From: Sulfurovum sp. | Lineage (GTDB): Bacteria > Campylobacterota > Campylobacteria > Campylobacterales > Sulfurovaceae | Reading direction: 5' to 3' | Assembly (NCBI GenBank): GCA_002733355.1 | Contig: NVVN01000001.1 | Location: 189,091 to 253,090 of the forward strand | DNA: 64,000 nt | Shown: positions 30,227-46,828 of the stretch, piece after piece | Numbering within the stretch: the first letter of the stretch is position 1 | Layout: every line of letters starts with the position of its first letter | Notes under the pieces: model-generated | Databases searched by the model: none | The model's input: the letters and a program-made list of their open reading frames with translations, nothing else | What the model was told of the DNA's origin: nothing | Translations under genes and position numbers: made by a program

Positions 30227-30341
30227 ATTTATTCCTTTAAATGTTTATTTTGTCATTATACAATAATTTCTATAATAGAATTATTGTTATAGCTTATCTT
30301 TTTTATTTTGTCAACTTTTTTGTGTGTTAAAACACAACTTT

Positions 30342-31145: not shown

Positions 31146-31176
31146 CTAGCCATCTTTGAAAAAATATTGTCAAAGA

Positions 31177-31704: not shown

Positions 31705-31956
31705 ATGTCAACAATAAATATAGCCCAAGAATGTGGATGTTTCAAAAAAAGTGATTTAGTGAACAATGTCGCATTTGAGAACAAAGATGATGCGATGATA
31801 GAAGCACTAAGTATAGTAAGTCATATGAATGAGGCGTTCTGTGGTAAACATGGTTTTGAGCTTAGTGAAAACGGTGATGATTTTGCCATTGCTATGAAAG
31901 CACCTCAACAAGCGCAAGCTTCAAGTGGATGCTGTGGCGGTGGACACTGTAGTTAA
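31705..31956 (+). CDS. Small Cys/His-motif protein (paralogue 3) with a CCGGGHCS tail
   Basis: ECGCFKKS...MNEAFCGKHGF...GCCGGGHCS; AAGGA RBS. Confidence 0.8.
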   Translation: MSTINIAQECGCFKKSDLVNNVAFENKDDAMIEALSIVSHMNEAFCGKHGFELSENGDDFAIAMKAPQQAQASSGCCGGGHCS

Positions 31957-32047
31957 ATAGAACGCAAAATGAACAAAGTTCATCTTTGCTACGCTAACAC
32001 TGGGTTTTCTTCAGCAGAAAGCTCACGTGACTAGTCACGTTAAAAAT
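31957..32047 (+). repeat. Three-hairpin structured repeat, copy 1
   Basis: Aligns with 46313-46403 (minus strand) with compensatory stem changes; contains the perfect palindrome ACGTGACTAGTCACGT. Confidence 0.75.
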
Positions 32048-32078
32048 ACCTCAAATCAGTAATCCAAAAATCAATCTA

Positions 32079-32576
32079 TTATTTAAAATTCCCAAACACA
32101 AGCGGCGCTTTTAAGTCCAGCTTCTTCACTTCAGCCATTACGGTTTGTAAATCATCTATTTTTTTCCCAGATACTCGTACTTCATCACCTTGTATGGACG
32201 GAGTTACTTTCACCTTCAAATCTTTTATGGCTTTTACTATCTGCTTCGCTTCATCTTTGTCTATGGTATCTACGATACGGTAAATCACCTTTGTGTTGCC
32301 ACCAGATATACCCTCCGTTTTTACCTCTTCCAGTGACTTTCCAGCGATGCCACGCTTGATGAGTTTAGAGATAAGTATATCTTTGAGTGCATCTATCTTA
32401 GAGTCCGTAGATGAACTCAAAGAAAGTGTCTTCCCTGCTTCGTTAAAGTTTATCTCTGCTTTTACACCCTTAAAGTCAAAACGCGTAGCTATCTCTTTTT
32501 CTGCCATAACTATCGCATTTTTCATTTCCATCATGTCTAGCTTTGCTGTTATATCNAAATAGTGGTCTTTTGCCAT
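32079..32576 (-). CDS. yajQ: YajQ-family nucleotide (c-di-GMP)-binding protein
   Basis: RFDFKG, SIQGDEVRVSGKKIDDLQ, F.NF C-terminus. Confidence 0.95.
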   Translation of the reverse strand: MAKDHYXDITAKLDMMEMKNAIVMAEKEIATRFDFKGVKAEINFNEAGKTLSLSSSTDSKIDALKDILISKLIKRGIAGKSLEEVKTEGISGGNTKVIYRIVDTIDKDEAKQIVKAIKDLKVKVTPSIQGDEVRVSGKKIDDLQTVMAEVKKLDLKAPLVFGNFK

Positions 32577-33244
32577 TATTGTTCCTTTTTTATGTTTAAC
32601 GAATTATCTAACCCTAATAAAATGTCATTTGTTAATTGCTTAATCATCTCATCGCTTATGTTCATATCTTCTATTGTTTTTATATTACTCAACCATAAAA
32701 GTGGAAAAGATTCTAATCTATAGATTAAAGTTTCTTTATCAAAAACAGATTTTTCATTAGCTATCTTTAAAATAGTTTCCCAATTAAATGATTCATGTTG
32801 AGCCAAACAAAAAAGATCAAAAAAGTCCTTTTCCTCATCTCTACCAATAATCGCAGTTACTTTATTGGCTAAGATATTTATCTTATTATCAACTCTAATG
32901 TCATTAATTATTTTACTTTTNCCCTCACGATGAACCCTGTCATTTACAAAGTCCAATTGTAACAAATCATCAACCATTATTCTATGGAAATCTTTAGTCT
33001 TCACTGTATGATTGACATCATAGTCTTTTTTTATTAGTGCATCTATTACTTCATTTACAGATTCGCCAAATATATTATCATTATAAGAAAAAAAATCTAA
33101 ATCATCAGAATATCTATAGTTATAGTAAAAACGATGCAATGCTGTTCCGCCTGTCAAGTAAAAAGTATTTTCTAAGCCAAATACTATTTCCAACACTTCA
33201 TCTTGTAAAAGATAAAGCTTCTTATAATCTATCTTTTTTTCCAT
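32576..33244 (-). CDS. AbiEii-like nucleotidyltransferase toxin
   Basis: GGTAL..FY...R.SDDLDF, NK..A...R...KD.FD. Confidence 0.85.
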   Translation of the reverse strand: MEKKIDYKKLYLLQDEVLEIVFGLENTFYLTGGTALHRFYYNYRYSDDLDFFSYNDNIFGESVNEVIDALIKKDYDVNHTVKTKDFHRIMVDDLLQLDFVNDRVHREXKSKIINDIRVDNKINILANKVTAIIGRDEEKDFFDLFCLAQHESFNWETILKIANEKSVFDKETLIYRLESFPLLWLSNIKTIEDMNISDEMIKQLTNDILLGLDNSLNIKKEQ

Positions 33245-33552
33245 GCTAAACTTTCTATATGGTTTTTTTCACCTAATAGTATGTTTTTTAAAATCAAAAC
33301 ATGCTTATCTATGTATTTTTGATTGTAGCTTGAGGTAAATGTAGAAAAAAGTTTTGCTAGCGTCTCTTTATCAAATAGCCGATGTAAAGTTCTTGCTTTA
33401 TCTGTAGAATTATATATTATTTTTGAAAATAGTTTTTGTTTTGTTCTTAAGTCATCAGAATGAAGTATATTGGCAATATCTTTTTCATCTACATTATAAT
33501 CCCAAAAACAGTCTTGAATAATTTGGCTATAGTCAACTAAATTTTCTACCAC
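33229..33552 (-). CDS. Putative cognate antitoxin of the AbiEii-like toxin
   Basis: Small ORF with an FWDY motif, overlapping the toxin start. Confidence 0.65.
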   Translation of the reverse strand: MVENLVDYSQIIQDCFWDYNVDEKDIANILHSDDLRTKQKLFSKIIYNSTDKARTLHRLFDKETLAKLFSTFTSSYNQKYIDKHVLILKNILLGEKNHIESLAWKKR

Positions 33553-33601
33553 TTTTTGCCTTCCTAGTATTCATGTGTGCATTATATCATTTTAAAATAT
33601 T

Positions 33602-33988
33602 TTATTTTTCACATTTTGTCATGACATCTTTGTCAAATGATATTTTGCCATACCCTTGCAATTTACTCTTTGAACATATGAGAGCATCTACATAATCTAT
33701 ATTTTTTTCAATCATCATATCTAACGAATTAATTAAAATATATTTATTTTTANTAACAACACCTTCTAGGCGTAAAATAGTCTTTAAATCTTTTACAATC
33801 TCCCCGAGTGGTACCTTATAGTATTTTGTCATTATAAACAAAATTTCCATAATAACTTCACTTAGAATTTCTACTTTTAATTCATTTTTTTCTATCTTCG
33901 CAATGATGTCTATGCTCTTACTATAAAGGTTGCTATCTTCTTTGACAAAAAAACGAATAATAACATTGGTGTCAATCAAGGAAATCAT
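33602..33988 (-). CDS. vapC: PIN-domain (VapC-like) toxin
   Basis: IDTNVIIR, E at helix, D.VDA, SFD acidic residues. Confidence 0.88.
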   Translation of the reverse strand: MISLIDTNVIIRFFVKEDSNLYSKSIDIIAKIEKNELKVEILSEVIMEILFIMTKYYKVPLGEIVKDLKTILRLEGVVXKNKYILINSLDMMIEKNIDYVDALICSKSKLQGYGKISFDKDVMTKCEK

Positions 33989-34241
33989 ATTTCTCTTTCA
34001 TTGCTTCCATCATTGCTTCTTCTTTAATTTGATCAAAGGGTTTATTTACATCTACATTCTTTGCATATTTATTAAACTTTCCTGCCAACTCATCAACTAC
34101 ACTCTTTTTTTGTTGACCCTGCATAGGATAAACAATAGCTATCTCTTTATTTTTACGCTTATCTACGATAGTAAGTGCCTCAGTAAGATGGGTCAATATC
34201 CCCATATTTTTCTGAAGTTCACCAATGCCTATGGTTTGCAT
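33972..34241 (-). CDS. Putative antitoxin (Phd-like N-terminus) of the PIN toxin
   Basis: 89 aa, IGIGELQKN, overlaps the toxin start. Confidence 0.7.
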   Translation of the reverse strand: MQTIGIGELQKNMGILTHLTEALTIVDKRKNKEIAIVYPMQGQQKKSVVDELAGKFNKYAKNVDVNKPFDQIKEEAMMEAMKEKYDFLD

Positions 34242-34270
34242 ACGGACTCCTTTTATATAAACTTGGTTTT

Positions 34271-34299
34271 ATTATATATAAATAGAGGAGGTTTGTCAA
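34271..34299 (-). promoter_or_regulatory. Consensus sigma70 promoter of the vapBC-like pair
   Basis: Minus strand TTGACA-N17-TATAAT (ttgaca aacctcctctatttata tataat). Confidence 0.7.
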
Positions 34300-34312
34300 A
34301 TTTAGCACATGT

Positions 34313-34468
34313 TCAATTTGAAATATCAATTATTTTAACATTACCATCAAAATCTGTATAATCTAATACCACTTCTTCTCTAAAATACATATCTTCTACT
34401 TCAGATATAGCTTCATCTACAGAAATGACTCTTGTCAATATTTCTTTTACTTCTATATTAACTTGCAT
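34313..34468 (-). CDS. DpnD/PcfM-like small protein, diverged copy with an internal deletion (possibly a relic)
   Basis: MQVNIEVKEILTRVISVDEAISEVEDMYFREEVVLDYTDFDGNVKIIDISN; paralogue of 35937-36113. Confidence 0.6.
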   Translation of the reverse strand: MQVNIEVKEILTRVISVDEAISEVEDMYFREEVVLDYTDFDGNVKIIDISN

Positions 34469-34482
34469 ACAGCAACCTTTGC

Positions 34483-34596
34483 TTAGAAATTTTTCTTAAT
34501 TAATTGTTGCATAAATTTTGTATTTAACCAAAAAGATTGTTTGATAATACTATTACCCAATCCATCTTTATCTCTATCATTTGAATCTCTACCATG
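34483..34596 (-). pseudogene. Relic 3' end of a second Sau3AI-like REase
   Basis: HGRDSNDRDKDGLGNSIIKQSFWLNTKFMQQLIKKNF* versus intact HGRNSNDRDKDGLGNSIIKQSFWLNTKFIQQLIIKNL. Confidence 0.85.
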
Positions 34597-34715
34597 CTGT
34601 AATAATTAATTTAGTTATAAAGTAAGCCAATTATTTTCCTTCTATTCTGGAAATAAATCTGCATCATACAGACTGATTTAATGATTATTTACCTATGTGA
34701 ACCTGCCCAACCATA

Positions 34716-35214
34716 TTATTTAAAATTTCCAAACACAAGTGGTGCTTTTAAATCAAGTTTCTTTACCTCAGTTATTACAGACTGTAAATCATCTATTTTC
34801 TTACCAGATACTCGTACTTCATCCCCTTGTATAGATGGTGTTACTTTTAACTTTAATGCTTTAATGGCTTTGACTATCTCTTTAGCCTCATATTTTTCAA
34901 TACTATCAACAATTTTATAGATTATCTTAGTATTACCCCCCCCGAAATTCCCTCAGTTTTCACTTCTTCCAGTGACTTTCCAGCGATGCCACGCTTGATA
35001 AGTTTAGAGATAAGTATGTCTTTGAGTGCATCTATCTTAGAGTCTGTAGATGAGCTAAAAGAAAGCGTCTTCCCTGCTTCGTTAAAGTTTATCTCTGCTT
35101 TTACGCCCTTAAGTCAAAACGCGTAGCTATCTCTTTTTCTACCATAACTATCGCATTTTTTATTTCCATCATGTCTAGCTTTGCTGTTATATCAAAATAG
35201 TGGTCTTTTGCCAT
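34716..35214 (-). pseudogene. yajQ: Frameshifted full-length second copy of yajQ
   Basis: Colinear with 32079-32576; 1-nt deletion near 35111 and a G8 tract (C8 at 34936-34943). Confidence 0.9.
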
Positions 35215-35215
35215 T

Positions 35216-35542
35216 TTAGTTCTCCTTATTGTATTGTTTAACGATTATATCTATCGCAGCATCTGTAATATTTTCCATTTCACTTTTCGTATATATGTCT
35301 ACTAAAAATATTTCATCTTCGATAACAGAATAAGTAATAATCCTATATCCAGCACTTTTACCTTTGTTATTATCACTATTTTTAATACGAACTTTGTATA
35401 GCCCTTTTGATAGTTCCACTCCCTGCTTTGGTGTGTCTTCTAAACTATTTAAAAATAATTGAAAATCTTTTTTAAAGTTCTTGTAACGCTTAGCTAACTT
35501 TTTAGCGCTCTTTTTAAATGCTGTAGAATAAAGTATATCCAC
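35216..35542 (-). CDS. RelE/ParE-family toxin
   Basis: F.K..KKL.K.Y, YKVRI......GKSAGYRII.Y. Confidence 0.88.
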   Translation of the reverse strand: MDILYSTAFKKSAKKLAKRYKNFKKDFQLFLNSLEDTPKQGVELSKGLYKVRIKNSDNNKGKSAGYRIITYSVIEDEIFLVDIYTKSEMENITDAAIDIIVKQYNKEN

Positions 35543-35838
35543 TAAAGTTCATCCCATAATGTATCTATAGGATATGCCTTCTTTTTACCTGCTTTTATCA
35601 ATTCTAATTCATCTAAAGAATCTGTGATTCTAGTTTTTAATTCTTGAAACTCTCGAAATGCCACAGCATCTCTCATGTCTTCATACTCTTCTTTAGAAAC
35701 CAGTACTGCTTCTATACGATTATTTTTGAGCACTGCCAACTTATCTACAGTATGATCTTTTATCTGAGCCAAATATGTCCCAAACTTCTTCGCAAACTCC
35801 GAAGAAGGTATAAGCTCATCATTTTTATACGCTACCAC
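35542..35838 (-). CDS. Phd/YefM-like antitoxin
   Basis: SSEFAKKFG.YL, VLKNN..EAVLVS..EYE; coupled to the toxin; upstream palindrome ACGGAA-agta-TTCCGT. Confidence 0.82.
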   Translation of the reverse strand: MVAYKNDELIPSSEFAKKFGTYLAQIKDHTVDKLAVLKNNRIEAVLVSKEEYEDMRDAVAFREFQELKTRITDSLDELELIKAGKKKAYPIDTLWDEL

Positions 35839-35936
35839 ACAAACTCCTTTTACGGAAAGTATTCCGTGTTATTTTGTGTATTATAGCGTAATTGTATTAC
35901 TTTAATATACTTCAAGATACCTTTAAGTGTTCATAA

Positions 35937-36113
35937 TTAATTATTTACATCAATAATTTCAATACTAGATTCACCTTCAAAATCTGCATAATCTAATACA
36001 ATTTCTTCATTTTTGTACATATCTTCTATTTTTAAAATAGCATCTTCTTTTGATTCTACATCAACAGTAATTATTCTCGACAAAACTTCTGTAATCTCAA
36101 TATCAACCNNCAT
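35937..36113 (-). CDS. DpnD/PcfM-like small protein
   Basis: 58 aa, below the ORF-track cutoff: MXVDIEITEVLSRIITVDVESKEDAILKIEDMYKNEEIVLDYADFEG...; starts 3 nt after the REase stop. Confidence 0.7.
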   Translation of the reverse strand: MXVDIEITEVLSRIITVDVESKEDAILKIEDMYKNEEIVLDYADFEGESSIEIIDVNN

Positions 36114-36116
36114 AAT

Positions 36117-37523
36117 TCACCTTTTCAATAAATTTTTAATAATTAACTGTTGTATAAATTTAGTATTCAACCAAAATGATTGTTTGATAATACTATTACC
36201 CAATCCATCTTTATCTCTATCATTGGAATTTCTACCATGAGGTCGTATATGTATGATTTGGGTTGCAGATTCTTTTGATAGTTCACTTACCTCTTTATAT
36301 CCTCGCTTAGTTTTATTTGCTATTTTAGTTACCCTACATTTACCATTATTCACTTCTCTTTGGTAATTTAGCCATTCTTGCTTAATAATATCAAATTCAC
36401 TATTACTAGGTGTCCAAAAAAATGCTTTTCCAAGATAAAGTTTATCTAAATCTTTAATATCTTTATATGCTTTATAAATAGGTATAAATAGGATTTTGCT
36501 TATCATGGGTAAAAAGGTGGATTCTTCCCACTCCTCCAAAACAAACTCTTCTAACTTCATTGCAGGAAAAGATATGGCTTCCATCGGACGACAATCTTTT
36601 TTTCGTACATTAATCATTTTTATTTCAATACCCAATTGTTCAAACTCTTTTATTTTTGAACGGACACTTTTAAAACCTATTATTTTTTTCATAACCGCAG
36701 CAACTCTACTTTTACTCTGTCCAATTTTAACATCAAATACTTCAGATAATTCTAAAATTGATTTGCCTTGTAATAAATTTATTTTCTCTAAAATTGCTTG
36801 CTCAAAACTATCCAAACTAGTAATATTTAAAGTTTCAATTATTGATTCAAATTTAACTTGATTAATCTCTTTCCATCTCTGATTAGTAAAAGGTTGTTTA
36901 AGGGAAAAGGCTCTTTTCTGTGCGGTATCAGCGTATATTGTATTGAACTGTGGTACTTGTTTTTTAGTTCCTGCTGGTGAAGCTTCAAGCGAGTCAGTAT
37001 CTCTACCAGATAGTTCATGTGCATACCCTGTAATAACCTTATTTTGAATGAAATGCCAATCATCTTTGAGAAATAATTCCCCCGCTTCTTCAGATAATTT
37101 CCATAAATCAATTTTTAAAATTTTAGATTTTAAAATATCTGAACTATCAGGAAAATAATACACAAAAAGAATTTTATTTAATTTTTCTTTAGTATGTGAT
37201 TCTTCCCATTTTTCATCATGCAAAGTCATATAATTCATACTACAAATTTTAGTACGCTCTTTAACCACTATCCCATTTTTAGTTTTTTTTAGTGGGATAA
37301 TTTTTAATTCAATACCTACTTTATCAAAATCAGGTAGTTGTGATGAGTTCTGTTCTATACCAAACCATTCCTTTTCAATAATGAGTCCAGCTAATCCTTT
37401 ATTCTTTAAATTAATTGTTCTTGTAGTTGAAGATAAATCTAAAATTTCTTGTAAACTTTTTCCAATTAATTTTTTCGCATAAGTAACTATAGATTTTTCT
37501 GAACTGTCATCATATTTAATCAT
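36117..37523 (-). CDS. MutH/Sau3AI-family restriction endonuclease
   Basis: NKG..G..IE..WFG, PDF...GIELK, KER; duplicated MutH-like domain; SFWLN end. Confidence 0.88.
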   Translation of the reverse strand: MIKYDDSSEKSIVTYAKKLIGKSLQEILDLSSTTRTINLKNKGLAGLIIEKEWFGIEQNSSQLPDFDKVGIELKIIPLKKTKNGIVVKERTKICSMNYMTLHDEKWEESHTKEKLNKILFVYYFPDSSDILKSKILKIDLWKLSEEAGELFLKDDWHFIQNKVITGYAHELSGRDTDSLEASPAGTKKQVPQFNTIYADTAQKRAFSLKQPFTNQRWKEINQVKFESIIETLNITSLDSFEQAILEKINLLQGKSILELSEVFDVKIGQSKSRVAAVMKKIIGFKSVRSKIKEFEQLGIEIKMINVRKKDCRPMEAISFPAMKLEEFVLEEWEESTFLPMISKILFIPIYKAYKDIKDLDKLYLGKAFFWTPSNSEFDIIKQEWLNYQREVNNGKCRVTKIANKTKRGYKEVSELSKESATQIIHIRPHGRNSNDRDKDGLGNSIIKQSFWLNTKFIQQLIIKNLLKR

Positions 37524-37524
37524 T

Positions 37525-38793
37525 TTATAGTTCTTCTAAAAGTGTTTTTCCAATTCTCTCAACAATCCCAATAACTAAAGCATTTCCCATTAAAAAAGCT
37601 CTCTTTGTATCTATCACACCAGCGGTATGATTATCTGGAAACATATTGAGTCTTTCTAACTCTATAGGTGTTAAACGTCTATAATTACCATTTACATGCA
37701 CTACATGTTTAAAACGTGAAGCACTTNCTCCACCTTCTCCNGTGATNATAGTCCTNGANGCTCTATCTAATCCATCAGGNAAACTCATTTTNCCTTCACT
37801 GTANGTATAGGTATGNCCTGTNGTNTTNTTGNNTCTTTCAAAAGANTTTGCACCTTTTTGATANTGCCATTTNTCAAGCTCNTTNTCATCTATATAAAAN
37901 TCTTTAGNNACATCNNNTTCATNNATAAGNATNTCACCTAATTTAGTACATGTACCTTGATACTCTGCTGTCACTCTTGCTGTATAATAAATACCTTCAA
38001 TCATATATCCACTTTCCCAAAATGCATTCTTTTTAGGGGTTTCATTATTGAAGTTATTTGTAATATATACTAAGTCATCACTAAGTTCATGAGAGATAAT
38101 AGTATCTTCTGTAATAGCGTGTATTGGAAACGTTTTTGTCAAGACCGAATCTTTATTAAATACATCTATAGGTTTTGACTTAACTAATGTTTTATAAAGT
38201 TTTGTACCTTTTTTATATGCCATAATAAATACACGTTTTCTACGCTGTGGCATACCATATTCACTTGCATCTATTACACGCCATTCAACTGCATATCCAA
38301 GCGAGTTCAATGAAGACAAAATAATCGCAAAATCTCTACCACGCTGAGAAGCCGGAGATTTTAAAAGTCTATCTACGTTTTCTAAAATAAGATATTTGGG
38401 TGCTTTAGCTTTTTTTTCTAATAAAATACGATATATTTCCCACCACAATACACCTTTTTTACCTACAATACCATGTGAATTTTTAAGTGAAGAAGCAACT
38501 GAGTAGTCTTGGCAAGGAAATCCTCCCACCAGAATATCATGTTCTGGAATATCTTGTACTATAACTTTAGAAATATCTTCATTTGAATGATTGTCAAATC
38601 CAAATCTTGCAACATATACTTCTGATGCATGTTGTTTTTTTGTAGATGGCTCCCATTGATTACTCCAAACAATATTAAATTGTTTATCTGAAGAAGAAGC
38701 TCTTTCTAATCCAATACGAAAACCACCAACACCTGCAAATAATTCTATCGTTCTCAAACATTTTGTAGTATTTGAAATCATAGATTTATTCAC
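37525..38793 (-). CDS. DNA (cytosine-5) methyltransferase, M.Sau3AI-like (GATC inferred)
   Basis: ELFAGVGG, NQWEP, GGFPCQDYS, ENVDRLL, QRRKR, MGNALV. GTG start at 38793 after AGGAG; alternative starts at 38838 and 38865. Confidence 0.9.
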   Translation of the reverse strand: MNKSMISNTTKCLRTIELFAGVGGFRIGLERASSSDKQFNIVWSNQWEPSTKKQHASEVYVARFGFDNHSNEDISKVIVQDIPEHDILVGGFPCQDYSVASSLKNSHGIVGKKGVLWWEIYRILLEKKAKAPKYLILENVDRLLKSPASQRGRDFAIILSSLNSLGYAVEWRVIDASEYGMPQRRKRVFIMAYKKGTKLYKTLVKSKPIDVFNKDSVLTKTFPIHAITEDTIISHELSDDLVYITNNFNNETPKKNAFWESGYMIEGIYYTARVTAEYQGTCTKLGXXLXXEXDXXKXFYIDXXELXKWXYQKGAXSFERXXXXTXHTYXYSEXKMSXPDGLDRXXRTXIXGEGGXSASRFKHVVHVNGNYRRLTPIELERLNMFPDNHTAGVIDTKRAFLMGNALVIGIVERIGKTLLEEL

Positions 38794-38924
38794 AGTTTCT
38801 CCTAGTTTTGTATAATTAAATAGATTATGTGCAGTCATTATATCATCCTTTGATTGTTTAATCAAAGGATGCCATAAATTAAAAAATTATCTCAAAAATA
38901 TCTCAAATTGACATATTTTTAGTG

Positions 38925-39015
38925 ATTCGTATCATTTTTTATGCGATTACTTCTCAATCCTCATCATAGCTATATCCCCACTCACAGTATCAAACTTATC
39001 AGCAGCTGTCATGGC
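38925..39015 (-). pseudogene. Diverged duplicate of the hom 3' end plus 22 nt of downstream sequence
   Basis: AMTAADKFDTVSGDIAMMRIEK* versus hom AMTALGKLDVVRGEIAMMRIEK*; matches 40257-40347. Confidence 0.85.
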
Positions 39016-39068
39016 ACAGATATATTACTATATTTTAAAGTAATATTTTACCCTAAAAAAACTAAGAC

Positions 39069-40190
39069 TCACACAACAACCCCATACCTCACATTCCTGC
39101 CACCACTTCCCTCTATCTGAACAATACACCCTTTATCTACCAACTCTTTTATATCTCTTACTACTGTGGCTTTACTCACTTTTGTCATAGCCATGTACTT
39201 TTTAGTGTTGATGCCACCTTCAAAGTTCTCATTACCTACATCCAAGACTTTGTTGAGTACTTTTACTTGGCGTGGGTTAAGGGCATCCGACCTATGGATA
39301 TCCCAAAATCTTGTTTTTTCTAAGAGATACTCTAAATCCTTTTGTGCATCTATCATCGCTTGTTTAACAGTTTCCAAGTGCCAGCGAATCCACGCAGTAA
39401 AATCAAAATCTCTATTTATAAAAAGATTGGTCGTTTTGTCTAACATGGNATAGTACTCNNTACGCTTATTATTGATAGCNGTAGAGAGNGAATAGAGTTT
39501 AAANTCTACCTGTGTGCTACCTGAGAGAATGTAGTCGGTNATAGCTCTAGCTATCCTGCCATTACCATCATCATAAGGATGTATAGAGACAAACCANAGA
39601 TGTGCCAATGCACTTTTAATATATCTATTTTCATCACTCTTTTCTATCCACTCCAAAAGCATTTCTATAGATTGGGATGGAGGTGCAATATAGTGTACTT
39701 TTTCATGCCCTATAGGTCCAGAGACTACTTGCGTATCATCATGCTCTCGAAACGAGGCAATACGAATCTTGTGTAAAAGATCATAGGAGGAAACAAAAAG
39801 GCAATTATGCCAGCCATGTAATCGCTCTTGGGTAAGTATGGTTTGGTTAGTGTTACAATCTATCAATACTTCTACCAAGGCATCAGTCTGATGGGTAGAT
39901 GTATCATTCTTAGTATCAAAATGTTGCAAAAGCTTTTTATATAACGATGCTCTTACGCTCTCTCTTTTGAGATATTCGCCCTCTATTGCCGAAGTATTGA
40001 TTGCTTCATTTACAAGTGCTTCTATTTTAATAGATTTGATATCTGTTTGATTCATTGATTTGGATATACCATGCAAAATACCATGATGATATTCTATCTG
40101 CATAAGAAGTTCTATAAGTGATGTTTTATCATACTTAAAATGTGGATAGTCAACATGTTGCCATATCCACTTTTGAGGGCTACTCTTCAT
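39069..40190 (-). CDS. Fic-family protein (DUF4172-type N-terminus, C-terminal HTH)
   Basis: HPYDDGNGRIAR Fic motif; WIWQ start; TSAIEGE. Confidence 0.92.
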   Translation of the reverse strand: MKSSPQKWIWQHVDYPHFKYDKTSLIELLMQIEYHHGILHGISKSMNQTDIKSIKIEALVNEAINTSAIEGEYLKRESVRASLYKKLLQHFDTKNDTSTHQTDALVEVLIDCNTNQTILTQERLHGWHNCLFVSSYDLLHKIRIASFREHDDTQVVSGPIGHEKVHYIAPPSQSIEMLLEWIEKSDENRYIKSALAHXWFVSIHPYDDGNGRIARAXTDYILSGSTQVXFKLYXLSXAINNKRXEYYXMLDKTTNLFINRDFDFTAWIRWHLETVKQAMIDAQKDLEYLLEKTRFWDIHRSDALNPRQVKVLNKVLDVGNENFEGGINTKKYMAMTKVSKATVVRDIKELVDKGCIVQIEGSGGRNVRYGVVV

Positions 40191-40278
40191 AACTTTACTC
40201 CAATGAGCCGTTTATTTAGAGTAATAGTATCATAATATGAGTCGATTAGTCAATTTATTCGTATCATTTTTGATGCGG

Positions 40279-41541: not shown

Positions 41542-41543
41542 TA

Positions 41544-42776
41544 TTATTTATCCTTTTTCTCTGCCTCTAAATCTTTTAAAAATTTCTTAATATTTTTTGC
41601 AGCCTGTCTAATACGTTTTTCATTTTCAATCAATGCAATACGTACATACGCATCACCATATTTACCAAAACCTATACCAGGACTCACTGCTACGCCGGCT
41701 TGAATAAGCAACCGTTTTGCAAACTCCAACGAGCCCATGTCACGTGCCACTTCAGGAATCTTCGCCCAGATGAACATAGAAGCATTTGGTTTTGCCAGTG
41801 GCCATCCAGCATTGCCAAAGGCATCGATCATCACGTCACGTCTTTTTTGATAACGGGGAATGATTTGTTCATCAGGAATATATCCATGGTCATCAAGCGC
41901 TACAGTTGCTGCCACCTGTATAGGGGTAAACATACCATAGTCCAACCAAGACTTGATACTTTGAAGTGCGCCTATGAGTTTTTTGTTACCTACGATAAAC
42001 CCTACTCTCCAGCCTGCCATATTGTAAGACTTAGACAGAGTATAAGACTCTACTGCCACATCTTTAGCACCCTCTACACTCATAATAGATGGTGTTTTGT
42101 ATCCATCAAATGTAATATCAGCATAAGCAATGTCAGAAATGATGTAAAATCGTCTCCTTTTTGCCAATGCCACAAGTCTTACATAAAATTCTGCTGTCAC
42201 CGTAGCTGTACTTGGGTTGTGTGGGAAATTCACAACTAGAAATTTTGCCTGAGGGACAGAATTGTCAAGTGCTTCTTCTACATCAGCTAAAAACCTGTCT
42301 TCATCCACTTCAAATGTCTCTTCATCAAAAATAAGATGCATTTTTTCAACATTTGCACCCGCCAAAATAAATGCCTGAGAGTGAATGGGGTATGTCGGAT
42401 CTGGAACGATTGCCACATCTCCAGGATTTGAAATAGCCTGTACCAAGTGAACATACCCTTCTTTACTTCCCATAGTTGCAACTATCTCAGTATCGGGGTC
42501 AAGATCAGCACCATATTTACGTTTGTACCATCTACTCATAGCAAGACGAAGTTTATAAATACCTTTACTGGCACTATAACCATGTGTACGTGTTTTTTGT
42601 GCAGTTTCACATAACTTATCAATAATAGGTTGAGGCGTAGGTGCATCAGGGTTTCCCATGGAAAAGTCTATAATATCTTCACCATTACGACGTGCTGTCA
42701 TTTTTAAATCATTAATCTCTGCAAAAAGATATTTTGGTAAACGATTTATTTTCTCAAATTGGATTTCATCAAACAT
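41544..42776 (-). CDS. Class I PLP aminotransferase (AlaC / LL-DAP aminotransferase-like)
   Basis: NFPHNP, SD.AY, SKSYNMAGWRVG. Confidence 0.88.
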   Translation of the reverse strand: MFDEIQFEKINRLPKYLFAEINDLKMTARRNGEDIIDFSMGNPDAPTPQPIIDKLCETAQKTRTHGYSASKGIYKLRLAMSRWYKRKYGADLDPDTEIVATMGSKEGYVHLVQAISNPGDVAIVPDPTYPIHSQAFILAGANVEKMHLIFDEETFEVDEDRFLADVEEALDNSVPQAKFLVVNFPHNPSTATVTAEFYVRLVALAKRRRFYIISDIAYADITFDGYKTPSIMSVEGAKDVAVESYTLSKSYNMAGWRVGFIVGNKKLIGALQSIKSWLDYGMFTPIQVAATVALDDHGYIPDEQIIPRYQKRRDVMIDAFGNAGWPLAKPNASMFIWAKIPEVARDMGSLEFAKRLLIQAGVAVSPGIGFGKYGDAYVRIALIENEKRIRQAAKNIKKFLKDLEAEKKDK

Positions 42777-42806
42777 TCTTTTCTCTCTTTATTTTTTTTC
42801 TTATAT

Positions 42807-43670
42807 TTACCATTTTTGCCAGCCACCTTGCGCGATATATTCTTCTCTACTTAAGTGGATAACACCCTCTTTACTTACTTTAAAATAATGTTCTTTTGAG
42901 TCATTATATTCTTGTGTCTCTTTTTTATATATAAAAGAAAAGGCCGCTGTGCTTGTAGCAAGTAGCCAACTCTTTTCTTTTACATCTATCTCATAGGGCT
43001 TTGAAATGGAAAAGTGATCTCTCTCTCCTGTACCCATTTCTACAAGACCAAACCAAAGTCTATGTTGTGGTACTAACTTTACACTTCCCGCCACATCTTC
43101 AACGGTAGTATTCACGTCAGTTACTTCTGTCTTTTTTTCTGTTTCCATACTTGTTAAAACAATATCTTTTTTAACAAATGTATCATTTTTAGGAACAGAA
43201 GAAAGGGCTTCACTAATACTTAAATCTTTTTCCACTGTTGCTTCATTTAGCATGCTATCATCTTTTAGAGAGGTAAGCTCTTGCGTTTTGTCATCTTGGA
43301 AAGGAAGCAGGGTCGTTAATGTCTTTTGGTCAAATTGCGTAAAAAAATACCATGTGGCATATGCCAACAATCCCAATACCAACAATAAAACCCATATAGA
43401 CCGTCCTCTTTTTTCCTCATCCATAGGTAACCCTACACTGATGCGATCATTTTCACTATGTGCATCATAATATACTAAAGCTTTTTCTTTTAGTGTTTTT
43501 AAATCTGCATCATAATCACGTTCAATAATAGAAATAAACCCTAAAGCTTTAGCCCTTTTCAATTCAGAAAAATCATCATTAATGAGTGCTTCAAGATTAT
43601 TTTCTGAAATATTTGTTTTTTTACTGATTGCTTTTACACTGTTTTCTTCAAGTATCTCATTTAATTGCAT
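42807..43670 (-). CDS. RodZ-like membrane protein
   Basis: N-terminal HTH-like region, single TM helix, periplasmic C-terminus. Confidence 0.6.
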   Translation of the reverse strand: MQLNEILEENSVKAISKKTNISENNLEALINDDFSELKRAKALGFISIIERDYDADLKTLKEKALVYYDAHSENDRISVGLPMDEEKRGRSIWVLLLVLGLLAYATWYFFTQFDQKTLTTLLPFQDDKTQELTSLKDDSMLNEATVEKDLSISEALSSVPKNDTFVKKDIVLTSMETEKKTEVTDVNTTVEDVAGSVKLVPQHRLWFGLVEMGTGERDHFSISKPYEIDVKEKSWLLATSTAAFSFIYKKETQEYNDSKEHYFKVSKEGVIHLSREEYIAQGGWQKW

Positions 43671-44343
43671 AACCCATCCTATGTATTAAAATCGCTGCTG
43701 CTGCACTCACATTAAGTGAATCAAAAGCATGTTTCATCTCAATAGAAACCATATGGTTTATTTTTCCCATTACTTTTTTTGAAAGTCCTGTACTTTCATT
43801 GCCCAACACCAACACTCTTTTACTACTAAAAGAAGTATGTTCAATATTTTCACCCTTCATCGCAGCACCATAAATGTTAAAACCAAGTTGTACAAGTTCA
43901 TTAAAATTATCTAAAATATTTGGTGAAATCATAAAAGGCATATCTAGCAGTGCGCCTGAGCTTGTACGTGCTACAGCTGAAAAGTTCAGTTGCTTTACAC
44001 CTGTCGCGATAATAGCATCAGCACCCAAAGCATACCCCGAACGTACAATAGCCCCTATATTTCCCACATCTGTCAAACCATCGAGTACCACAATAAAACT
44101 ATGCTGTTTTACCTCAGAAAAACTTGCTTCTTCAAAATCAGTCATTTCTATAAGTAGTCCTTGGTGATTTCCACCTTTAGCCATAGACTGTGCCCACTTC
44201 TCTTCTAAAAACTTGATATTGTCGTGATACTGATGAAACAATGCTTGGGGGAGTATGTTTTTTTTAGCCACATAAACAGTTTTAATTTTTTCAGAGTGAT
44301 GCTCTAGTGCATGCAAACAGACTTGTTTTCCATATATAATCAT
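43657..44343 (-). CDS. rlmB: 23S rRNA Gm2251 methyltransferase
   Basis: NHQG, D..N.GAI.R, LG.E..G, SLNVS.A SPOUT motifs. Confidence 0.9.
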   Translation of the reverse strand: MIIYGKQVCLHALEHHSEKIKTVYVAKKNILPQALFHQYHDNIKFLEEKWAQSMAKGGNHQGLLIEMTDFEEASFSEVKQHSFIVVLDGLTDVGNIGAIVRSGYALGADAIIATGVKQLNFSAVARTSSGALLDMPFMISPNILDNFNELVQLGFNIYGAAMKGENIEHTSFSSKRVLVLGNESTGLSKKVMGKINHMVSIEMKHAFDSLNVSAAAAILIHRMGYAIK

Positions 44344-44397
44344 AAAGAAGATTTTACCCTTTTTTTGCTTTTAGGGTGTTAAGTAAGTTCCAATCAC

Positions 44398-45207
44398 CTA
44401 TTTGATGAGCTCGTTATACCACTCTTTTATAGATTTGTCACTTAACTGTGCTAAGAGTTTTGCCTTAGGTTTTGGTGCCAAATCAAGATTTAAAACTTCT
44501 ACAAAACTGAGACTTTTCTCCAGCACTTCTTTTGCTTTTATTATCACTACCCACTCACCTCTTATTGTAAGTGTTTTAAACTGTTCGTTGAGTGACTTTA
44601 CTGTGCCTTTATAGTAGTTTTGATATTTTTTACTGATTTCTTTAGCCAAAAACAATTCTCTATTTTCATCAAGCAGTTCTATCTCTTTTAACAGTTTTTC
44701 CAGACGGTGTGGTGACTCGTAGAGTATTGTATTGTATCCATTATTCATTGCTTCACTAAGCTCAAAAGCACGTTCTTTCCCCTTATGCGGTAAAAAAGCA
44801 TAAAAAAGAAACTTCCCTTCTTCAAATCCAGAGGCAGCGTAGGCTGTAGTGACAGCTGATGCTCCAGGAAGCACATCATAATGCATGTCGTGTTTTTGTG
44901 CATAGGCTACAAGAAGTTGCCCTGGGTCAGAAATAACAGGCATGCCTGCATCACTTACATAAACAACTTCTTCTTCAGCCAACAAAGCTCCGAACTCATT
45001 TAGCCTCTCTTGTCCATTATGCTCATTAAACGAATAAAACATAGCATCAGGATACACCATCTCGAAACGTTCTTCTAGTAACTTTAAAAGCTTTTTTGTT
45101 TGACGCGTATCTTCGCAGAAAAATAGTGTTGCTTTTTCAAATGTTCGCATGGCTCGAATAGTAATATCTTGGGGGTTTCCAATAGGAGTAGGAATGAATG
45201 TAATCAT
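44398..45207 (-). CDS. rsmI: 16S rRNA C1402 2'-O-methyltransferase
   Basis: TPIGN..D, CEDTR, SDAGMP.ISDPG, YESPHR. Confidence 0.95.
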   Translation of the reverse strand: MITFIPTPIGNPQDITIRAMRTFEKATLFFCEDTRQTKKLLKLLEERFEMVYPDAMFYSFNEHNGQERLNEFGALLAEEEVVYVSDAGMPVISDPGQLLVAYAQKHDMHYDVLPGASAVTTAYAASGFEEGKFLFYAFLPHKGKERAFELSEAMNNGYNTILYESPHRLEKLLKEIELLDENRELFLAKEISKKYQNYYKGTVKSLNEQFKTLTIRGEWVVIIKAKEVLEKSLSFVEVLNLDLAPKPKAKLLAQLSDKSIKEWYNELIK

Positions 45208-45238
45208 AAAATGCCTTTAGGCAATTAAATAAATAAAA

Positions 45239-45256
45239 TAGGGACAAGAGTCCCTA
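45239..45256 (-). terminator. rpmE terminator hairpin
   Basis: TAGGGAC-aaga-GTCCCTA, followed by U-rich sequence on the minus strand. Confidence 0.6.
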
Positions 45257-45271
45257 AAAGGTAAAGATGTC

Positions 45272-45472
45272 TTACGACAATTTGTATTTGTTTTTAAATT
45301 TCTCAACTCTACCAGCAGCATCAAGAATCTTCTCAGAACCTGTGAAAAATGGGTGACATTCATTACAAATATCCACTGACATTTCAGCTTTGTTTGTTCT
45401 TACTTCAAACTTGTTTCCACAAGCACAACTTACTTTACACTCAACGTAATCTGGGTGAATTTCTTTTCTCAT
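45272..45472 (-). CDS. rpmE: 50S ribosomal protein L31 (Zn-binding type)
   Basis: [24 protein letters not shown]. Confidence 0.97.
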
Positions 45473-45617
45473 TTTTTAACCTTTAGTTTTATTGTATGAT
45501 GGACAACTAATCCATTCTAGCATTTTGCTCTTCCTTATTTTACAAATAAGTGGTATTGCAACGCTCTAGGCGAGACAATTAAGACCGTAATTCTACCGAA
45601 ATAAAGTTAAATCAAAA

Positions 45618-46286
45618 TTAGAGTAGTATTTTTGAAGCCACCGCACATACTGCTGACTCTGATTTTAAAACCAAAGGTGTATCAAAACCCACAATATCTT
45701 GGGTTTCGAAAAGTGCTACTTCCTTTTCATGAAAACCACCTTCACACCCTATGACTATAGTATCTATATCATTATTAGAAACAAAGTTTTTTTCAGAAAA
45801 ATTCAGCATTTTTGCACTTGGGTATTGTTCGACAAACGACGCTAAACCTTCTACCGCTTCAAGTACCATCATTTGTGATCTACCTGACTGTTGTGATGAA
45901 TTTAAAAGTATCTTTTTTAGCCGCTTAAAGTCAACTATAAAAGACTTTTGTGAACGTTTACAATAAATGAAAGTGATTTTTTCTACACCCATTTCATTGA
46001 GAGACGGGAGTATTTTTTCTATCTGCTTGGGGTCTATGACACACCAACCAATGTGGAGTGACCGGGAAGCCTTTATCTCACATATCATACTTTCTTGCAG
46101 CGCTAACTGTGTTGCATGTTTATCCATAGTTACGATAAGATAACGATGTAAAAGTCCATCTTCAAGATTTCGTAGATACAAAATATCATCTACTTTGTGT
46201 CTCCGTACCTTAAAAATGTAACGGTGTTCATCACCTTCTAAAGTGAGTGATGGTATACCTGCATCATTATGATATAAATATAACAT
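45618..46286 (-). CDS. rsmE: 16S rRNA U1498 methyltransferase
   Basis: E.GV, QQSGR, IG.EGG, L.SE.A. Confidence 0.9.
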   Translation of the reverse strand: MLYLYHNDAGIPSLTLEGDEHRYIFKVRRHKVDDILYLRNLEDGLLHRYLIVTMDKHATQLALQESMICEIKASRSLHIGWCVIDPKQIEKILPSLNEMGVEKITFIYCKRSQKSFIVDFKRLKKILLNSSQQSGRSQMMVLEAVEGLASFVEQYPSAKMLNFSEKNFVSNNDIDTIVIGCEGGFHEKEVALFETQDIVGFDTPLVLKSESAVCAVASKILL

Positions 46287-46312
46287 TTTAAATCCTTGAT
46301 AATAAAGTCAAG

Positions 46313-46403
46313 ATTTTAAAACTGCTCCAGCGCAGTGAGCCAACTGCTGAAGTTGACTTAGCGTCAGCGTAGTTATCTGAGCTTAGCTTACATGGCGTCC
46401 TAT
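46313..46403 (-). repeat. Three-hairpin structured repeat, copy 2
   Basis: Aligns with 31957-32047 with compensatory stem changes; begins at the stop codon of the upstream gene. Confidence 0.75.
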
Positions 46404-46828
46404 AATGATATAACACCCTTAGCCTTCAAGACCATAAGCACTACCATTGCAGCGACCAATAGAATATGAATGATAGAAATTTTGATAAATGATGATTTAA
46501 GTACTTTATGTGTATCTGCATTTTGTATGTTTGCAACCTTAATTGCTTTGTACTTTTTTATCTCGATATACATCATAATAGCCCAAACAACAACCATAAT
46601 AATAGTCGTAGTTGACCAACCTAAATCACCTGTAAATACGGCTACTATCCCTGCAAATGCAATCATCGTTATAATTGCTTGAAAGATCATCGTATAAATA
46701 AAAGAGCTTTTTCTAAATCCAAGTGGATTGCTCGCTGTGATAAAAGGAATAAGTAATCCCCCAACTAAAAAGCCTAAAAAAGCTTTTACCAACATACTGT
46801 GTGTGACTAGCATCTGTGATACTTCCAT
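46400..46828 (-). CDS. Hypothetical 4-TM membrane protein
   Basis: Four hydrophobic segments; GAGG RBS. Confidence 0.7.
   Translation of the reverse strand: MEVSQMLVTHSMLVKAFLGFLVGGLLIPFITASNPLGFRKSSFIYTMIFQAIITMIAFAGIVAVFTGDLGWSTTTIIMVVVWAIMMYIEIKKYKAIKVANIQNADTHKVLKSSFIKISIIHILLVAAMVVLMVLKAKGVISL

Follow-up and report, generated by a model that had tools for sequence, protein, structure and literature searches.

A dispersed three-hairpin repeat at gene junctions of Sulfurovum and related Campylobacterales

The DNA analysed here, referred to as the window, is a stretch of 64,000 nt from Sulfurovum sp. (contig NVVN01000001.1, positions 189,091 to 253,090). It carries two copies of a short repeat with three hairpins, and the question is what kind of element keeps its fold while its stems change, and how it came to lie at the ends of unrelated genes. 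Both copies reported in the initial annotation were found at 31957-32047 (+) and 46313-46403 (-), and the quoted sequences matched. The pairwise alignment showed the conserved linkers and loops as well as all three compensating changes in the stems, and each copy lies in sense at a gene end, i.e., that of an 83-aa ORF for copy 1 and of a 142-aa ORF for copy 2. The repeat family is best explained as an undescribed, non-coding, non-autonomous one, about 95-105 nt long, in sulfur-oxidising Campylobacterales (Sulfurovum and relatives).

The conserved core of copy 1 (31957..32047, +; covariance model 107.5 bits, E 2.9e-20) comprises ATAG with a GACG-type tag, three hairpins and a T/A-rich tail. It is flanked on one side by the 83-aa Cys-rich ORF (31705-31956, +) and on the other by a DUF520 gene in convergent orientation (32079-32576, -). 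The TAA stop of the ORF (31954-31956) abuts ATAG (31957..31960, +), the presumed landing sequence immediately 5' of the copy. In hairpin 1 (31965..31988, +), a 10-bp stem with a single bulge is topped by C-AAA-G. The hairpin is preceded by RACG and followed by CTACG, which read as GTAG-hairpin-CGTY on the minus strand. The conserved, single-stranded linker CTACGCTAACACTGG (31989..32003, +) is followed by hairpin 2 (32004..32022, +), which has seven covarying pairs and a TCAGC loop and can be extended to 32001-32025 via the conserved CTGRGT / GCTCAY. Hairpin 3 (32026..32039, +) has 6 bp and a GACTAGTC top, and is followed by TT.

The core of copy 2 (46313..46403, -; 82.2 bits, E 1.6e-14) was placed between the 142-aa membrane-protein ORF (46400-46828, -) and rsmE (45618-46286, -). 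The TAG of its motif (46400..46402, -) is the stop codon of the upstream ORF. The inserted segment, GACG...ATCAAG, would be 105 nt long (46295..46399, -), with bounds taken from element-free orthologous junctions. Hairpin 1 (46373..46395, -) is partly decayed here, whereas it is intact in the G048, G047, and G002 orthologues. Hairpin 2 lies at 46339..46357 (-), and hairpin 3 (46322..46335, -) shows two compensated pairs among orthologous copies, i.e., CTGCAC/GTGCAG vs CGGTAC/GTACCG. The folding energy of copy 1 as a single sequence was -24.3 kcal/mol (z = -3.75), and that of copy 2, whose first hairpin is weak, was -20.6 kcal/mol (z = +0.23). Single-sequence folding energy is only partly supportive of structure in the window copies, and the family-level evidence is stronger.

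In the family, the unit begins with (A)TAG and RACG, and continues with hairpin 1, CTACGYTRACRCTGRGT, hairpin 2 with loop TCAGC, GCTCAY, hairpin 3 with top GACTAGTC, TT(T) and a variable tail, which ends in AG in the resolved cases. Covariation was tested on 15 copies from this genome in a MAFFT alignment made without fitting to a structure. Paired cells reached 77.4%, vs 60.3% in shuffles, with double changes in 18 of 23 pairs. The covariation score was 0.470 vs 0.200, a value reached by 0 of 500 shuffles, and slid controls scored at most 0.185. A larger set of 101 copies (99 distinct) was aligned to the covariance model and, being fitted to it, leans towards structure; it gave 89.7% vs 64.1% paired cells, double changes in 21 of 23 pairs, and a score of 0.613 vs 0.181 (0 of 500 shuffles). 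The stems vary freely yet remain paired, and the loops and linkers are nearly invariant. The CTACG right after hairpin 1 on the plus strand kept each base in at least 80% of the 101 copies. Wobble is split between the strands: cells of hairpin 1 (94 A.C vs 17 G.U) favour the minus strand, and those of hairpin 2 (121 G.U vs 14 A.C) the plus strand.

The count of two copies was an undercount, because that view was limited to the window. The 1.94-Mb genome holds 17 nhmmer matches (E <= 1.5e-9) and 19 covariance-model matches. The covariance model matched 29 of the 41 sampled genomes, this one included, i.e., 22 of 24 congeners, with 0-53 matches each, and 6 of 16 from other genera of the order. 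In species-representative genomes, a scan for the exact pattern gave at least 120 matches. Among 80 records listed from the pattern scan, all carried Campylobacterota labels except two labelled only 'uncultured bacterium', and the named records with the element belong to Sulfurovum, Sulfurimonas, Sulfuricurvum, Sulfurospirillum, and Hydrogenimonas. The family is therefore dispersed, and its copy number differs widely among related genomes. The copies of this genome share a mean column identity of about 59%, so they are regarded as old. In Rfam 15, the window gave no match to the element at gathering scores, and seven copy-bearing loci searched at E <= 5 gave only the neighbouring tRNA and SRP RNA genes and chance-level matches elsewhere. 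Thus, the covariance-model search proposed in the initial annotation returned many further copies with strong covariation, and its view of a dispersed element under selection for structure, of no named family, is borne out by the family matches, the stem covariation and Rfam.

A sense ORF end was located within -25..+15 of the motif in 61 of the 114 near-full copies, and in 45 of these 61 within -5..+3. The host operons are unrelated housekeeping ones, e.g., leuB-purU, clpP-def, and amtB-glnB; rplL also hosts a copy, and the long ORF that follows rplL is presumably rpoB. Copies abut tRNA genes in both orientations, and head-to-tail tandem arrays of identical units were found. Orientation was compared with GC skew for 19 copies, of which 10 were leading, 6 lagging and 3 without a call. 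Terminator-like sites were called at neither window copy, and in S. mangrovi a separate canonical terminator lies 3' of the element. As side observations, the G015 subfamily is the sole one with extra end hairpins, which are mutual inverted repeats flanked by TA, and two overlapping opposite-strand matches were noticed (L073 and G018:C13).

Element-free orthologous junctions, suggested earlier as a check, were found, and units have evidently been gained and lost at such gene junctions when species are compared. At the leuB-purU junction, 30 loci included five full copies with unrelated stems in different species, two copies whose hairpin 2 carries an insertion, several decayed copies and six empty sites. 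The copy 2 junction was filled in 5 of 30 loci and empty in 22, the other three being assigned to neither class. The copy 1 junction was filled in G000 and G008 only, and the ffs-tRNA-Ser junction was filled in three loci and empty in seven. With a caret at the borders, empty and filled sites read AAATAG^TTGTAA vs AAATAG^GACG..ATCAG^TTGTAA at leuB-purU, and TTAAG^TATCTT vs TAATAG^GACG..TTTAG^TATCTT at ffs-tRNA-Ser. At the copy 2 junction they read TAG^GATTATAG-ATG (as in L229, an example used to bound the copy 2 insert) vs TA(G/A)^GACG..(A/G)AG^GATTxxxx-ATG. In these three filled-vs-empty comparisons, all between species, the inserted DNA starts with GACG right after a pre-existing (T/A)AG, which is the TAG stop codon of a gene in two of the three. 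Because the right end is also AG, a 2-bp AG target duplication and an element-borne AG end are inseparable. Hairpin 3 lies anywhere between about 6 and 27 nt from the inferred right end. Among 99 scored copies, exact TAG was present in 22 beside a stop codon and in 19 others; the word is thus independent of stop-codon use, since it also occurs away from stop codons.

At the copy 2 junction, core identity among five species was 80-89%, while the flanking genes reached 70-73% and the tails 26-60%, and the orthologues carry compensated pairs in hairpins 1 and 3. The core is thus better conserved than the neighbouring genes at this one junction. In the G008 ortholog of copy 1, conserved linker bases are changed and about 12 of 91 positions differ (counted by eye). 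This ortholog diverges as much as its own flanks; therefore, not every copy is constrained.

A linked HUH/RAYT gene, another proposed check, was searched for, and the search turned up no transposase linked to the element. All 19 copies lie far from the five Y1_Tnp genes in this genome, which have other repeats at their flanks; its RAYT-like gene carries a different REP of the GTAGGGTGCG type. Across 12 Y1_Tnp loci, the covariance model gave nothing better than E = 2.6. In mostly incomplete assemblies, G001 (38-46 matches), G006, and G007 have copies and no Y1_Tnp match, and G005 and G013 have Y1_Tnp and zero element matches. The only small GIY-YIG gene of the genome (83 aa, C18:22885-23109) had no adjoining copy and no hairpin repeat obvious by eye.

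The most probable reading is a REP/BIME-like, structured repeat that is mobile but non-autonomous and inserts behind TAG; the host would then tolerate it or employ it as a hairpin module between cistrons. The unit would be moved in trans by an enzyme reading folded single-stranded DNA, and the best-fitting mechanism would be of the HUH/Y1 type known from IS200/IS605 and REP-RAYT systems, with insertion 3' of a short word in the target. Because TAG is a stop codon and spacers are only 1-30 nt in these genomes, the insertions that survive would lie exactly in the gap from the stop codon to the following ribosome-binding site, mostly in sense. The hairpin cassette so placed would be transcribed with the operon and may be tolerated or mildly useful, e.g., as a 3'-exonuclease barrier or partial terminator, which would explain purifying selection on it. 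The lack of a mobilising enzyme in the searches, the mismatch between genomes with Y1_Tnp and genomes with the element, the variable right-end distance, the ambiguous AG ends, the weak GC-skew orientation bias, the strand-split wobble and the divergence of the G008 ortholog of copy 1 count against this reading, and the copies in this genome, being old, may no longer be mobile. Between the options first offered, i.e., an RNA motif or sRNA and a REP/MITE-like element, the latter is favoured because of the presence and absence at orthologous junctions, the tandem arrays and the antisense placements, with room left for an added RNA role. A bolder proposal is rather doubtful: the core would be a mobile post-transcriptional cassette that a novel enzyme acting on single-stranded DNA pastes precisely behind TAG, homing to stop codons, and that hosts retain at operon junctions as an RNA or ssDNA module recognised by proteins. 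Such a transposition system would seek out stop codons and would lack inverted ends, target duplication and a linked transposase. Its two halves would be read on opposite strands, the minus strand for hairpin 1 and the plus strand for hairpin 2.

The conservation at the copy 2 junction, with its compensatory changes, would also suit a host cis-acting RNA, i.e., a 3'-UTR or intercistronic motif bound by a conserved protein or RNase that primarily sets mRNA stability, processing or termination, with dispersal secondary. Such a role fits the prevalence of sense placements between co-directional genes (37 vs 17 antisense, 54 in total), the invariant loops and linkers on variable stems, as in protein-recognised RNAs, the sense-strand G.U excess in hairpin 2, and the presence of at least five T among the 8 nt past hairpin 3 in 42 of 101 copies. 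However, the 17 antisense placements, the tRNA genes abutted in both orientations, and the wobble of hairpin 1, which favours the antisense strand, do not suit an RNA motif, and no canonical terminator was called at either window copy. Further evidence against it comes from four orthologous junctions at which the element is either present or absent, decayed copies included, and from leuB-purU, where independent copies whose stems are unrelated occupy one nucleotide position. The tandem arrays and the range of 0-53 matches among congeners also speak against it, and this primary role is considered unlikely. Independently transcribed small RNAs in a multi-copy family are far less probable still. 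In size and fold the copies resemble small RNAs, and one copy is located, in several species, between the genes for SRP RNA and tRNA-Ser. However, most copies sit in operon junctions at 0-5 nt from a stop codon, so there is no room for an own promoter, and their flanks are not conserved. The promoter-like site scan found none at copy 2; near copy 1 there were four vs 1.5 expected from shuffles, one of which (+, 31941-31970, 9/12) ends inside the start of the copy.

The tags of hairpin 1, GTAG 5' and CGTY 3' on the minus strand, are of a kind known from REP superfamilies, and together with wobble that implicates both strands they would fit a DNA-level site for a host protein acting on folded ssDNA or cruciforms. 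This protein could be an Ssn-type site-specific ssDNA nuclease, as with Neisseria NTS/dRS3, or a recombinase, and the site would modulate recombination or transformation without transposition. CGTC-tagged repeats are reported to lack a transposase (Di Nocera et al. 2013, PMC3733652), and repeats of this kind have since been linked to Ssn nucleases of the GIY-YIG type (Chenal et al. 2025, PMC11893778). However, NTS/SRM carry CGTC 5' of the hairpin and flank ssnA, and the order is reversed in this element. The single small GIY-YIG gene on C18 lacks an adjoining copy or obvious hairpin repeat, attC-type pairing of both ends is absent, and insertion polymorphism exactly after TAG is left unexplained. 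A purely DNA-level site is thus held to be improbable, and the REP/BIME-like mobile repeat stays the preferred reading.

Few parts of bacterial genomes are as poorly understood as small structured repeats of the REP, BIME, REPIN, and NTS types, and enzymes of such repeats (RAYT and Ssn) were recently turned into tools. The present element is widespread in ecologically important sulfur-oxidising Campylobacterales of vents, sediments and the subsurface, and has an unusually clean covariation signal, a fixed three-hairpin grammar, invariant loops and landing at stop codons. It offers a genome-runnable model for annotation and for explaining MAG assembly breaks, a natural experiment on how compact operons cope with 100-nt insertions that separate a stop codon from the following ribosome-binding site, and a handle towards a new nucleic-acid-recognising protein. 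If it were only a decaying selfish repeat, it would be an ordinary addition to the catalogue.

Among known systems, Correia/NEMIS MITEs of Neisseria and BOX of Streptococcus pneumoniae are small, non-autonomous, co-transcribed gene-junction repeats. Like them, the element is modular, with internal insertion and deletion variants, and is inserted at gene junctions. Unlike classical MITEs, its main family has no terminal inverted repeats or defined target duplication; inverted repeats longer than 10 nt with one mismatch were absent from five copies examined, and none were seen by eye in other flanks. An integron attC site folds as one long imperfect hairpin, formed by pairing of its 5' R''/L'' with its 3' L'/R' boxes, and its GTTRRRY core is 3'-terminal. 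This candidate was rejected, as the 5' ATAGGACG is unpaired with the 3' end, the three hairpins are separate, and the copies are dispersed and not in cassette arrays.

The IS200/IS605 group, including IS605/IS608 of H. pylori, inserts by short target preference. The element resembles this group and its gene-less derivatives (PATEs) in having subterminal hairpins, no terminal inverted repeats and no clear target duplication, and in apparent insertion 3' of a short specific word, here (A)TAG, in fixed orientation. It differs in its dissimilar left and right hairpins, in the variable distance from the last hairpin to the right end, and in having neither a TnpA/TnpB link nor ends in common with a TnpA-bearing autonomous element; its replication-strand bias is weak, whereas that of IS200/IS605 is strict.

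According to Chenal et al. 2025 (PMC11893778), NTS consists of one 28-nt hairpin, which has CGTC at its 5' foot and flanks the nuclease gene, and the Ssn/NTS (SRM) motif is defined as CGTC-hairpin-CYRG units flanking the small GIY-YIG ssnA gene. NTS/dRS3 and SRM are, like the element, CGTC-type tagged hairpin repeats, dispersed and clustered between genes, and NTS is recognised as single-stranded DNA. The element departs from them in its reversed tag order (GTAG-hairpin-CGTY, minus strand), its three hairpins, and a small GIY-YIG gene not flanked by its copies.

The element is also unlike REP, a single palindrome or inverted doublet, in having three different hairpins in fixed order, and unlike REPINs in that its copies are single or head-to-tail, with inverted pairs rare. 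REPINs and RAYT (Y1 HUH) transposases are a known pairing in E. coli and Pseudomonas (Bertels and Rainey 2011), whereas no RAYT gene is flanked by the element and it does not co-occur with Y1_Tnp. As in the REP/BIME/REPIN-RAYT system, the repeats are short, structured, non-coding and intergenic, lie at gene ends and inside operons, and keep their stems by compensatory changes. An unpaired GTAG stands directly before a hairpin, as in REP (here hairpin 1, minus strand), and the unit is a mosaic of several hairpin modules, as in BIME. Like REP/BIME, it differs in copy number among relatives, and its persistence appears to be long and mainly vertical.

The repeat, i.e., a three-hairpin element of about 95-105 nt opening with (A)TAG|RACG, was read back at both window positions, 31957-32047 on the plus strand (copy 1) and 46313-46403 on the minus strand (copy 2). 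The placement and sequences reported in the initial annotation were borne out. In pairwise alignment, the copies share the linkers and loops ATAGRACG, CTACGCTRACRCT, CTTCAGCAG, GCTCAC, and CTRG, and the compensating differences described earlier were recovered, with paired changes separating the copies in all three stems. The sense placement at gene ends also holds for both. Copy 1 follows an 83-aa Cys-rich ORF without a Pfam match (TAA stop, 31954-31956), and its downstream neighbor is a convergent DUF520 gene. In copy 2, the motif TAG (46402-46400) is the stop codon of a 142-aa membrane-protein ORF, and the rsmE start lies 8 nt beyond the inferred end of the insertion. Folding energy alone was mixed, i.e., z = -3.75 for copy 1 and z = +0.23 for copy 2, where the first hairpin is weak. 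No terminator was called by scanning the two window copies. The promoter scan found no promoter-like site at copy 2, and four such sites near copy 1 against 1.5 expected from shuffles.

The two copies belong to a larger family. Iterated nhmmer recovered 17 copies in this genome (1.94 Mb, 22 contigs), and 15 of these were used to build a covariance model. The model search that had been proposed as a check returned 19 matches in the same genome, of which 17 had E <= 1.3e-5 and the other two, both partial, had E-values of 5.4e-4 and 1.8e-3. The selection for structure claimed from two copies was upheld by stem covariation in both larger sets. In a structure-blind MAFFT alignment of 15 copies of this genome, 77.4% of cells were paired versus 60.3% in shuffles, and double changes occurred in 18 of 23 pairs. 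The covariation score was 0.470 versus 0.200, which 0/500 shuffles reached, and slid controls scored at most 0.185. Across 101 copies (99 distinct) from many genomes, paired cells were 89.7% versus 64.1%, double changes were found in 21/23 pairs, and the score was 0.613 versus 0.181 (0/500 shuffles); this alignment was fitted to the model and so leans towards it.

Hairpin 2 can be extended by three further pairs through the conserved CTGRGT/GCTCAY, which show no covariation. Pairing of the linker GCUG with the loop CAGC of hairpin 2 as a pseudoknot was rejected because the linker bases sit in this extended stem and do not covary with the loop. The attC and Xer-type sites were ruled out by the anatomy of the element. 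Rfam 15 gave no match at the gathering or E-value thresholds tried, in agreement with the earlier statement that no named family was recognized. The wobble cells differ between hairpins: hairpin 1 (94 A.C vs 17 G.U) folds better on the minus strand, hairpin 2 (121 G.U vs 14 A.C) folds better on the plus strand, and hairpin 3 is neutral.

Genomic context was scored for 114 near-full copies, drawn from 174 nhmmer hits across this genome and the fetched loci. A sense ORF of at least 60 codons ended within -25 to +15 of the motif in 61 of them, and within -5 to +3 in 45 of these 61. Positions peaked where the motif TAG is the stop itself (14 copies), at TAA-ATAG (12), and at TAATAG (6). The remaining copies lie 3-14 nt from the CCA 3' terminus of a tRNA in sense, next to an antisense tRNA-Ser at its 5' end, or 10-25 nt from an antisense start codon. 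By flanking ORFs, 37 copies were sense co-directional, 17 antisense co-directional, 5 convergent, and 2 divergent, and 53 had one side unresolved. The hosts in this genome are unrelated housekeeping junctions, among others leuB-purU, clpP-def, atpE, amtB-glnB, and cdsA, a class-V aminotransferase gene followed by a hisZ-like gene, and rplL followed by a long ORF, which we take to be rpoB. In one congeneric genome (G018), three successive genes of one operon each carry a copy behind them. The exact TAG was present in 22 copies beside a stop codon and in 19 others (99 scored; 15 lacking the ACG anchor or containing N were left out), so ATAG is independent of stop-codon use. The T at position -3 was conserved in 73 of the 99.

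Orthologous junctions were compared among congeneric genomes (G-numbers; G000 is this genome), and empty sites of the kind suggested as a check were found, between species, at leuB-purU, the copy 1 and copy 2 junctions, and the junction of the SRP RNA gene (ffs) with tRNA-Ser. At leuB-purU (30 loci), full copies lie directly behind the TAG stop in G000, G012, G018, G045, and G047, with stem sequences unrelated between lineages. Copies with a ~47-nt insertion in the hairpin 2 loop occur in G017 (locus L177) and G002 (L185), an internally deleted copy in G008, and remnants without hairpin 1 in G006, G011, G016, and G046; six loci are empty. The copy 2 junction was filled in 5 of 30 loci (G000, G048, G001, G047, and G002), without the element in 22, and unresolved in 3; the 22 show a stop codon, 0-10 nt, and a start codon, or overlapping genes. 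The copy 1 junction was filled in G000 and G008 only, and short element-free spacers were seen at three loci. The ffs-tRNA-Ser junction was filled in G012, G023, and G018 and empty at seven loci, three of them with just 11-13 nt between the RNA genes. G000 has a copy beside tRNA-Ser, but its ffs gene is inverted with respect to this tRNA.

Three pairs of empty and filled junctions delimit the insert, i.e., AAATAG|TTGTAA versus AAATAG|GACG...ATCAG|TTGTAA at leuB-purU, TAG|GATTATAG-ATG versus TA(G/A)|GACG...(A/G)AG|GATTxxxx-ATG at the copy 2 site, and TTAAG|TATCTT versus TAATAG|GACG...TTTAG|TATCTT at ffs-tRNA-Ser. In these three comparisons, the inserted DNA starts with RACG directly behind a pre-existing (T/A)AG and ends in AG. 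A 2-bp AG duplication may accompany insertion. Among DNA contigs of four runs, one X7 contig connects 31950 to 32080 and skips 129 nt, which is ambiguous for an empty allele; the other contigs simply end inside the element. Many scattered single N or ambiguity positions were seen at 29367-39597 of the window, dense at 37727-37933 and 39449-39597, which points to a consensus of mixed strains.

Other inserts occupy some of the same junctions. At the copy 1 site (orthologous to window 31957-32078), another conserved block of ~110 nt, also structured, follows the CCGGGHCS gene in 14/30 congeneric loci (L261, L264-L266, L269, L270, L273, L274, L276, L277, L279, L283, L284, and L288). It is composed of a GTCGTGGC...GCCACGAC stem and a GCTTCGTTTTTT...AAAAAACGAAG hairpin, had no Rfam match at E <= 1, and may represent a further unclassified structured RNA or a terminator module. 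At leuB-purU, at least three further types of small repeat, all with terminal inverted repeats, were found (L175, L188, L190, L191, and L192), e.g., GTAGGGTGGGTTTTCTAACCCACC... and CTCTCGTTCCCA...TGGGAACGAGA; small inserts of various kinds thus collect at this stop-codon junction, a general hot spot. Linkage of ffs and tRNA-Ser is seen throughout the genus (L289-L309; G000 contig C20, 89655-90026), with only 11-13 nt between the two genes in G005, G013, and G021, and an unrelated ~120-nt insert (..GAGATGAATTGAAAGATTAGCTTTGCTGATTTTCAAGAAGACA..) fills the gap in G001, G016, and G019. Six genomes (L214, L216, L222, L231, L234, and L236) have overlapping membrane-protein and rsmE genes at the copy 2 junction, with a GTG rsmE start inside the upstream gene. 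This overlap resembles the outcome of a deletion between GTGTTATAT and ATGTTATAT, short direct repeats on either side of the element in this genome.

Resident copies show signs of constraint. At the copy 2 junction, the five orthologs have hairpin sequences in common, with compensated pairs in hairpin 3 (CTGCAC/GTGCAG vs CGGTAC/GTACCG) and at the lowest pair of hairpin 1 (C-G vs T-A). Relative to the copy of this genome, their cores are 80-89% identical, the tails 26-60%, and the flanking genes 70-73%. By contrast, conserved linker bases are altered in the copy 1 ortholog of G008, which differs by eye at about 12 of 91 positions overall and diverges as its flanks do (87% identity). Several copies at leuB-purU are decayed. 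Constraint on resident copies is thus real but not universal.

Subfamilies were also recognized. Identical units form tandem arrays in G015 and G025. In the G015 subfamily (L243-L247), additional hairpins lie 5' (GAGTTCTTGCAGAACTC) and 3' (AGACTTCTTGTTTTGCAAGAAGTCT) of the core; these are mutual inverted repeats bounded by TA. Two of its copies are 97.7% identical over 131 nt, and its tandem array has a period of 104 nt. The ~47-nt loop variant, whose extra nucleotides form two small hairpins, is a subfamily and not a one-off insertion, because it was found in three species at different loci (G000 contig C21, 15228-15377; L177; and L185).

Of the 24 congeneric genomes sampled, 22 were matched by the model (0-53 matches per genome, zero in G005 and G013), as were 6 of 16 other genera of the order. 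A strict pattern search of species-representative genomes gave at least 120 stretches. Among the 80 matches listed, the labels were Sulfurovum/Sulfurovaceae, Sulfurimonas/Sulfurimonadaceae, Sulfuricurvum, Sulfurospirillum, Hydrogenimonas, Helicobacteraceae, and unclassified Campylobacterota, and two were labeled only 'uncultured bacterium'. Viral contigs gave no pattern match. The plasmid collection gave one, an unannotated unit on a 395-kb Sulfurovum mangrovi replicon, which begins TAATAG|GACG where the reading frame of a c-type cytochrome ends. Cultured carriers include Sulfurovum mangrovi ST1-3 and Sulfurovum sp. CS9.

The observations are consistent with a mobile repeat of the REP/BIME type that is non-autonomous and depends on its structure, has a new architecture, and prefers to land behind TAG. 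Of the options in the initial annotation, the REP/MITE-like element is thus favored, by gain and loss at junctions, arrays, and antisense copies. Where co-directional genes lie 0-30 nt apart, insertions would survive only if they fall downstream of a stop codon and ahead of the following ribosome-binding site. Such a filter, together with the TAG preference, would explain why copies sit in sense immediately behind stop codons. The hairpins would be retained because a putative mobilizing enzyme needs them. A pure cis-regulatory RNA is less likely, since such a role does not fit the antisense and tRNA-adjacent copies, the presence/absence polymorphism, the tandem arrays, and the bias of hairpin 1 to the antisense strand. 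Resident copies may still have an RNA role, and the host seems to benefit at some sites, because the core is conserved beyond the flanking genes.

The linked HUH/RAYT gene proposed for such an element was not found: this genome has five Y1_Tnp genes, all away from the copies and flanked by other repeats, i.e., a GTAGGGTGCG-type REP or inverted repeats. A Y1_Tnp search of this genome and 40 relatives showed no association with the element, 12 Y1_Tnp loci scanned by the model gave nothing better than E = 2.6, and Y1_Tnp presence did not track copy number. One of the five regions (G000 contig C11, 5921-6421) encodes a 166-aa Y1 (RAYT-like) protein with GTAGGGTGCG...GCACC hairpins on both sides; this REP-RAYT arrangement is classical and not related to the three-hairpin repeat. 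Two Y1_Tnp proteins of 256-258 aa with a C-terminal extension (contig C8, 2937-3707; contig C15, match 17794-18126, minus) are encoded between inverted repeats (GGGGTCAGGTGA...), with many ambiguous bases. Orientation against local GC skew was not informative (10 leading, 6 lagging, and 3 undetermined among 19 copies).

An Ssn/NTS-type link, for which PMC11893778 gives a precedent, was rejected, as the only small GIY-YIG gene of this genome is not flanked by element copies. In searches of the literature on REPs in Sulfurovum, miniature inverted repeats in Sulfurimonas, and REPIN/RAYT in Epsilonproteobacteria, and among the papers listed for the linker 10-mers, no description of the motif was found. 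Di Nocera et al. (PMC3733652) list Sulfurovum sp. NBC37-1 as carrying both GTAG and CGTC repeats, and hairpin 1 may be counted among them in that study. On the minus strand, hairpin 1 reads GTAG-hairpin-CGTY, and these are the two tags of the REP superfamilies described there.
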